This document shows positions 15-770 of a DNA stretch of 847 bases, piece by piece. Position 1 is the first letter of the stretch, and each line of letters begins with the position of its first letter. The position numbers were made by a program, and so were the translations under genes. Under the pieces are notes generated by a model that searched no databases, had not been told where the DNA came from, and saw nothing but the letters and a program-made list of their open reading frames with translations. Source of the stretch: a phage; the sequence record AF039876.1; one strand, given 5' to 3'.

Positions 15-533
15 ATGGCTAAGATCGGCGGTAGGTTACCTATTATGTACGCAGCTCTTGCTTCTAACGTATTCGTCCTACAGACTGCTTTTGAGAGCCT
101 AAAAGTAGGTGACCAGCTAAATAGGCTGGAACAGTTCGGTACTATTGTCGGCACCATGACAGGTACACCGGTACAGACACTAGCTTTATCACTACAAAAC
201 GCTACTAATGGTGCTATATCCTTTGAAGAGGCTATGCGTCAAGCATCCTCTGCTTCCGCTTATGGATTTGACAGCGAACAACTAGAGCAGTTCGGTTTAG
301 TAGCACGTCGTGCGGCTGCTGTTCTTGGTGTTGATATGACTGATGCACTTAACCGTGTAATTAAGGGTGTATCAAAACAAGAAATCGAACTTCTGGATGA
401 ACTTGGTGTTACTATTCGTCTTAACGATGCGTATGAAAATTACGTTAAACAATTAAATGCTACCAGTACAGGTATTAAATATACTGTAGATAGTTTAACT
501 ACATACCAAGAAACAACAAGCGTATGCAAATGA
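15..533 (+). CDS. Hypothetical phage-type structural protein, possibly tail tape-measure-like or minor tail protein; probably the N-terminal part of a longer interrupted gene
   Basis: Supplied ORF of 172 aa, ATG 15 to TGA 531-533. No minus-strand ORF competes. First codon position is G-rich and third position T-rich (gct, ggt, cgt, act, gtt), as expected for real coding sequence. Segments such as AYGFDSEQLEQFGLVARRAAAVLGV and ELLDELGVTIRLNDAYENYVKQ resemble tape-measure-like proteins from memory only. Frame 0 is also open at 3-14 (D-F-A-A) and there is no Shine-Dalgarno-like motif in 1-14, so the start may be upstream of the window. Confidence 0.75.
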   Translation: MAKIGGRLPIMYAALASNVFVLQTAFESLKVGDQLNRLEQFGTIVGTMTGTPVQTLALSLQNATNGAISFEEAMRQASSASAYGFDSEQLEQFGLVARRAAAVLGVDMTDALNRVIKGVSKQEIELLDELGVTIRLNDAYENYVKQLNATSTGIKYTVDSLTTYQETTSVCK

Positions 534-770
534 AGTTATTGCAAGAGTCTACTCCGTAGATTTGGATACCTAGATGATGCTCCTAAGGCAACCTCCTGGG
601 AACAATTTGCTGCCAATGCTAACTCAGCTCTAAGAAGTTTACAACAAAGTGCTGCTACATACTTAAATCCTGTTATGGATACCCTTAATACTTCCTATAC
701 CAAACTAAATCTCCCAGATGAGAAGTTCCGCAATGGCACTAATGCATCCGCTAAAAACTACTCAAGCTGA
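534..770 (+). CDS. Probable 3' continuation of the upstream gene: start-less open frame in the same frame, separated from it only by TGA 531-533 (frameshifted or stop-interrupted gene, possibly a pseudogene or sequencing artefact)
   Basis: Frame 0 has 78 sense codons from 534 to 767 and then TGA 768-770. There is no ATG, GTG or TTG in this frame before ATG 675, and that ATG has no RBS. A rough chance estimate for an open run this long is about 0.02, assuming roughly 5% stop frequency per codon. The translation from 573 onward (DDAPKATSWEQFAANANSALRSLQQSAATYLNPVMDTLNTSYTKLNLPDEKFRNGTNASAKNYSS) is protein-like, and all three frames are stop-rich only after 770. Confidence 0.4.
   Translation, partial: SYCKSLLRRFGYLDDAPKATSWEQFAANANSALRSLQQSAATYLNPVMDTLNTSYTKLNLPDEKFRNGTNASAKNYSS

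Follow-up and report, generated by a model that had tools for sequence, protein, structure and literature searches.

The window, by which we mean the whole 847-nt stretch of DNA analysed (record AF039876.1), matches phage T5 at 97.1 % DNA identity when compared with phage genomes by blastn, and the match lies under gene D18-19/pb2. No phage record in that comparison exceeds 97.1 % identity to the window. In T5, pb2 (T5.140, YP_006968.1, 1219 aa) is annotated as a tail length tape measure/pore-forming tail tip protein. On the T5 reference (L001) the match occupies 4001–4850 and the pb2 CDS 3484–7143 (1219 codons), and end to end the window corresponds to pb2 nucleotides 518–1367, its start lying 517 nt into the CDS. 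The window is wholly internal to one gene, spanning T5 pb2 codons 174 to about 455, while the real gene reaches approximately 0.5 kb upstream and approximately 2.3 kb downstream of it. Window bases 1–507 are 100 % identical to T5, with 0 differences. The ATG at 15 is the internal pb2 Met178 rather than a gene start, and the codons at 3–14 (DFAA) already belong to pb2. The features that the argument draws on are these:

3–507, + strand: internal part of pb2, from codon 174, in the true frame and 100 % identical to T5 (alignment, L001 match)
508–554, + strand: three private one-base insertions, A at 508 (CCAG to CCAAG), A at 543 (GCAG to GCAAG) and C at 554 (ACTCG to ACTCCG) (alignment)
531–533, + strand: artefactual stop TGA, the pb2 codons GCA AAT GAA (A-N-E) out of frame, read as ..C AAA TGA (alignment)
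555–691, + strand: pb2 residues 357–402, again in the nominal frame (alignment, translation)
692–847, + strand: error-dense tail, still pb2 coding sequence, residues about 403–455 (alignment, shifted-frame translation)
764–783, + strand: 8-bp hairpin with the stem AAGCTGAA/TTCAGCTT (folding, alignment)
768–770, + strand: second apparent stop TGA, outside the pb2 frame (alignment)

Pfam recognizes two families on T5 pb2, TMP_N (PF24164) at residues 1–82 and TMP_C (PF24165) at residues 1182–1217, and window residues 174–455 lie outside both. For the central approximately 1100 residues of pb2, to which the whole window belongs, there is no Pfam match, and neither of the two translated window segments gave one. 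Inspection by eye of T5 where the window begins and ends revealed no obvious restriction or cloning site. In the surrounding T5 gene order, an endonuclease gene (T5.141, similar to RB49 ORF239C; L001 2735–3487, NC_005859 95777–96529) sits between the tail assembly chaperone genes and pb2, overlapping the pb2 start by 4 bases (3484–3487), and constitutes an insertion in an otherwise canonical chaperone-then-tape-measure order.

The initial annotation, prepared from the letters of the window, had described what looked like one gene split by an in-frame TGA. The frame of the ATG at 15 does close at TGA 531–533, is followed by 78 open codons at 534–767 and ends at TGA 768–770, as described, and the first ATG, GTG or TTG of the downstream stretch is the ATG at 675, with no Shine–Dalgarno-like motif in the 20 nt before it. 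When 534–767 was shuffled, only 157 of 20,000 shuffles kept the 78 codons open, so that the open stretch is more than would be expected by chance. The proposal that the two open segments form one gene was borne out, as 15–530 and 534–767 match adjacent parts of pb2. In the separate protein comparison of both segments that had been recommended as a check, 15–530 corresponds to pb2 178–343 with 165/166 residues identical and 534–767 to pb2 357–402 with 45/46 identical. The gene of about 250 residues envisaged from ATG 15 to TGA 768 is, on the other hand, wrong at both ends, since the real gene has 1219 codons.

The lesion itself had been presented as a single in-frame TGA, whereas three insertions are involved, all within 47 nt, and numerous further errors come after them. 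The insertions at 508, 543 and 554 bring the frame to +1, +2 and +3, respectively, and the original frame is back after 554. The in-frame TGA at 531–533 exists because the extra A at 508 shifts the reading of GCA-AAT-GAA. Residues 344–356 of pb2 (KQQAYANEVIAES) are lost from the nominal frame, although frame 1 still yields the majority (KQQAYANEVIA), and there tblastn returns KKQQAYANEVIA at 508–543. As a consequence of the three insertions, the downstream stretch is open, lacks a start codon and matches pb2 again. All three insertions are absent from T5, T5st(H), IrisVonRoten and HMD-P3 in the alignment, and the comparison of the locus in relatives, another of the suggested checks, finds these four phages with neither a stop nor an indel at 508–554.

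Within the downstream open stretch, the true pb2 frame is followed only at 555–691. At 583 and 596 this segment has private T-to-C substitutions, both of which repeat the C before them, and the first of the two gives L366P. A further deletion lies at the 691/692 boundary, on account of which 692–767 is open by accident. The segment 692–847 contains 20 of the 27 private differences of the window, at 13–14 % per base, and in it the true frame jumps through frames 2, 1 and 2, with the pb2 fragments FLYQTKS, SQMR.SAMA, KTT.AENV and IENAVGA.E found after 692 in frames 2, 1, 1 and 2, respectively. Each stretch between indels gives its corresponding pb2 residues when translated in a shifted frame. 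The second TGA (768–770) is an in-frame stop because of the preceding indels, whereas T5 is open at its counterpart and for another 2.3 kb. A nonsense codon produced by substitution, TAT to TAA, stands at 823–825 (pb2 Y448). Repair of the indels alone restores pb2 174–455 except for 10 residue changes, one of which is the TAA nonsense codon. As given, the window holds no uninterrupted pb2 frame, owing to 11 indels and the stops, while the frame is uninterrupted in all relatives examined; the broken frame is attributed to errors in the sequence and not to the gene. The sole heptamer of X-XXY-YYZ type in the window, GGGCCCC at 801–807, is out of the pb2 frame and owes its existence to private G-to-C changes at both 805 and 807, T5 having GGGGCGCG at this place.

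A hairpin and a stop-rich tail had been placed immediately after 770. An 8-bp hairpin is indeed present at 764–783, and stops occur in all three forward frames beyond 770, but these do not mark the end of a gene, the 'stop-rich tail' being pb2 coding sequence that is open in T5. The hairpin is made by two private differences, a C-to-A change at 764 and the loss of an A after 777, and in the intact T5 sequence the 764–783 stem is not formed. The folding energy is -10.9 kcal/mol (z -2.2) for the window and -7.2 kcal/mol (z -1.1) for the T5 counterpart, which adopts another fold. No T-run accompanies the hairpin on the + strand, and a terminator scan calls the site on the - strand only. That terminator-like site of the - strand (783–764, consensus scan) has GAGTAGTTTT after the 8-bp stem; we regard it as an artefact because it depends on the same private differences and lies within pb2 coding sequence. 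A real terminator after 770 was considered and rejected, given the origin of the hairpin in two private differences, the missing + strand T-run and the position of the actual pb2 terminator approximately 2.3 kb downstream of the window. Without the private differences there would be no second TGA, no hairpin and no stop-rich tail.

The character of the differences was assessed by aligning the window with T5 (two independent records), IrisVonRoten and HMD-P3 and tabulating every departure. All 27 differences, namely 4 insertions, 7 deletions and 16 substitutions, fall within 508–847, and the distribution of 0/507 for bases 1–507 against 27/340 for 508–847 is highly significant (Fisher P = 1e-11). 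Their density is 5.4 % in 508–600, 2.0 % in 601–700, 12.9 % in 701–770 and 14.3 % in 771–847. T5, T5st(H), IrisVonRoten and HMD-P3 all lack every one of the 27 variants of the window, and the relatives are unanimous among themselves at 24 of the 27 differing positions. The window accumulates 11 single-base indels in 340 bases, compared with no internal indel in relatives that carry 13 and 64 substitutions, the most divergent aligned relative differing by approximately 8 % in this stretch (64 substitutions over 848 aligned bases). Each of the 11 indels can be positioned so that a single base is gained or lost beside an identical one. Every one of the 16 window substitutions copies an adjacent base, against 7.0 expected (joint P = 7e-7), whereas the corresponding counts in the relatives (3/13 and 29/64) are at or below expectation. 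Substitutions at codon positions 1, 2 and 3 number 5, 7 and 4 in the window, 2, 0 and 11 in IrisVonRoten and 11, 8 and 45 in HMD-P3, and the ratio of synonymous to non-synonymous changes is 5:11 in the window, 11:2 in IrisVonRoten and 46:18 in HMD-P3. With no footprint of selection among them, the differences look like errors rather than the outcome of evolution.

The exact variant string is absent from collections of viral contigs, one-genome-per-species contigs and metagenome contigs, while its wild-type counterpart, used as a positive control, was found in the viral collection. An exact-product look-up returned no gene on record with the 172-aa product. A megablast comparison of the window with 5,426 complete E. 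coli genomes and 72,556 plasmids gave no match, and hence no integrated or decaying copy is present among them. By tblastn, 521 phage records cover at least 80 % of pb2 residues 320–469, and all 30 records sampled down the ranking of these 521 match that region in a single unbroken piece. Over the same residues most relatives show only about 50 % protein identity. At the DNA level, the alignments of Bf23, HildyBeyeler, slur09, SE11, EC100 and other T5-like phages (78–80 % identity) end at window 680–692, corresponding to about 4680–4695 of L001. These end points suggest that a boundary between conserved and variable segments of the tape measure gene may lie near 680–692, independently of the errors in the window.

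The pattern of the differences has to be weighed against the explanations that would take them at face value. If the 27 changes were true, the window would represent a genuine truncated tape measure allele and not a misread. The stops and frameshifts do stand in the sequence as given, and a damaged molecule, such as a mutagenized clone, would yield an identical static sequence, so that sequence alone provides no formal distinction. Nevertheless, it is improbable that the window derives from a defective or mutagenized T5 clone, a defective particle or a decaying pb2 pseudogene that would specify a truncated tape measure protein, and equally improbable that a localized burst of indels and neighbour-copying substitutions arose, for example, through slippage-prone, error-prone replication or repair. 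Real lesions would all have to fall in the 3′ 40 % of the window, beyond 507 bases without a single fault, and to rise in density, and the copying of a neighbour by 16/16 substitutions (P = 7e-7) is a signature of a base-caller and not of mutation. Tails, moreover, cannot be assembled without the tape measure protein, whose C-terminus is found in virions. T5 is strictly lytic, and since no copy occurs in the 5,426 E. coli genomes or the 72,556 plasmids, a pseudogene would have nowhere to persist and decay. The genuine lesion or pseudogene that the initial annotation had listed among three options is very probably not the explanation, in view of the neighbour-copying nature of all 16 substitutions and the failure to find the variant in any collection searched. 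A mosaic gene, which would combine 5′ 507 bases of T5 with a 3′ part contributed by a diverged T5-like phage, gains some appeal from the far greater divergence of Tequintavirus tape measure genes in the 3′ part of the window and from the many DNA alignments that end there, at about 680–692. A functional donor, however, would bring in-frame and mostly synonymous third-position changes, whereas in the window 11 indels shift the frame, one codon has become a nonsense codon and no codon position is favoured, and no change matches any of the three aligned relatives. No phage was found with an intact pb2 carrying the window's substitutions without its indels, and a mosaic origin is considered very unlikely.

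Programmed recoding, by which a +1 or -1 frameshift or TGA readthrough would join the two segments into a longer isoform, had also been put forward. Tail gene clusters are known for programmed frameshifts, such as that of lambda G/GT, and AAA-TGA at 528–533 is formally a possible context for a +1 slip, but a slip at this site meets a TAG 13 codons on. Readthrough would give nonsense, because ETTSVCK*SYCKSLL, the nominal-frame sequence on either side of the TGA, bears no correspondence to pb2 (KQQAYANEVIAEST). The window has no in-frame X-XXY-YYZ heptamer and no Shine–Dalgarno-like stimulator upstream of the TGA, and the production of pb2 from it would need 11 shifts, in both directions, plus nonsense suppression. 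There is also nothing conserved to recode, since in T5 and its relatives the frame runs on unbroken and no stop stands at this position. In siphophages, the tail-cluster frameshift of the lambda G/GT type belongs to the chaperone genes, which lie upstream, and not to the tape measure gene itself. The genomic neighbourhood is comparable in T5, with the chaperone genes (L001 1806–2640) just upstream of pb2, but the -1 frameshift of lambda G/GT takes place in a chaperone gene at one conserved slippery heptamer and is itself conserved among relatives, whereas the window would require eleven unconserved shifts in a tape measure gene with no slippery site. With relatives that have neither stop nor shift, no in-frame slippery heptamer and 11 shifts needed, recoding as an explanation of the split is excluded, any residual likelihood being extremely slight. 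Even less credence, a practically negligible amount, can be given to an alternative code in which TGA would specify an amino acid, in the manner of codes 4/25 or of selenocysteine, and the ORF would be continuous. Both stops, at 531 and 768, are TGA, as this explanation would have it, but TGA 531 lies among 13 codons that do not follow the pb2 frame, and the T5 equivalent is AAT GAA, with no sense-TGA. The host E. coli uses the standard code, and TAG and TAA stops are present throughout the tail as well. TGA as a sense codon is thus ruled out by the alignment with T5.

The whole very probably reflects errors of base calling where a read from within T5 pb2 runs into its low-quality tail. Of the three options offered by the initial annotation, the evidence supports sequencing or assembly error, and the interpretation given there is overall only partly supported. 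We infer base calling as the cause from the spatial and compositional pattern of the differences alone. The window would be a single read, or an unpolished record built from one, originating in the pb2 interior, with its first 507 bases correct and the quality of base calling collapsing beyond them. In the tail of such a read, neighbouring peaks would be called twice, merged or miscopied. Spurious bases at 508, 543 and 554 would take the frame to +1, to +2 and back into register and would generate the apparent TGA at 531, and spurious deletions and substitutions after 691 would generate the second TGA, the hairpin and the stop-rich tail.

The platform was most likely a single-pass Sanger-type read, and 847 nt is a typical length for an untrimmed read of this type. 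The window resembles the tail of such a read in its approximately 500 clean bases, followed by error rising to approximately 14 %, and in its doubled or merged identical bases and neighbour-copying miscalls. It differs in that the error density dips at 601–700 before rising again; the decay is not strictly monotonic, 601–700 (2 %) being cleaner than 508–600 (5.4 %). With T5 pb2 itself it shares 100 % identity over the first 507 bases, 97.1 % identity overall and segments corresponding to residues 178–343 and 357–402, and it differs by the 27 private differences in its last 340 bases, which include 11 frameshifting indels and one nonsense substitution.

C-terminal parts of pb2 are present in T5 tails, where the protein is cleaved after R1127 and where residues 1085–1127 and the last 35 residues have been modelled, and these parts are needed for channel formation and peptidoglycan digestion (PMC10038345). 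Consequently, translation must pass straight through the region covered by the window. In the phage itself, pb2 would be read as one uninterrupted ORF, with neither recoding nor pseudogenization.

The split gene is a correct reading of an incorrect sequence and not a real biological feature. The result tells us nothing new about T5 or tape measure proteins, and its value is limited to quality control. A gene caller or recoding scan applied to this record would produce only false features, namely a 172-residue ORF, an orphan open frame, a terminator hairpin and a candidate frameshift within a phage tape measure gene. The signature of a read tail, whose recognition eliminates such a false positive, is perfect identity followed by private run-length and neighbour-copying errors with no codon-position bias, and codon-position and neighbour-copy statistics, set against real relatives, make a reusable test.
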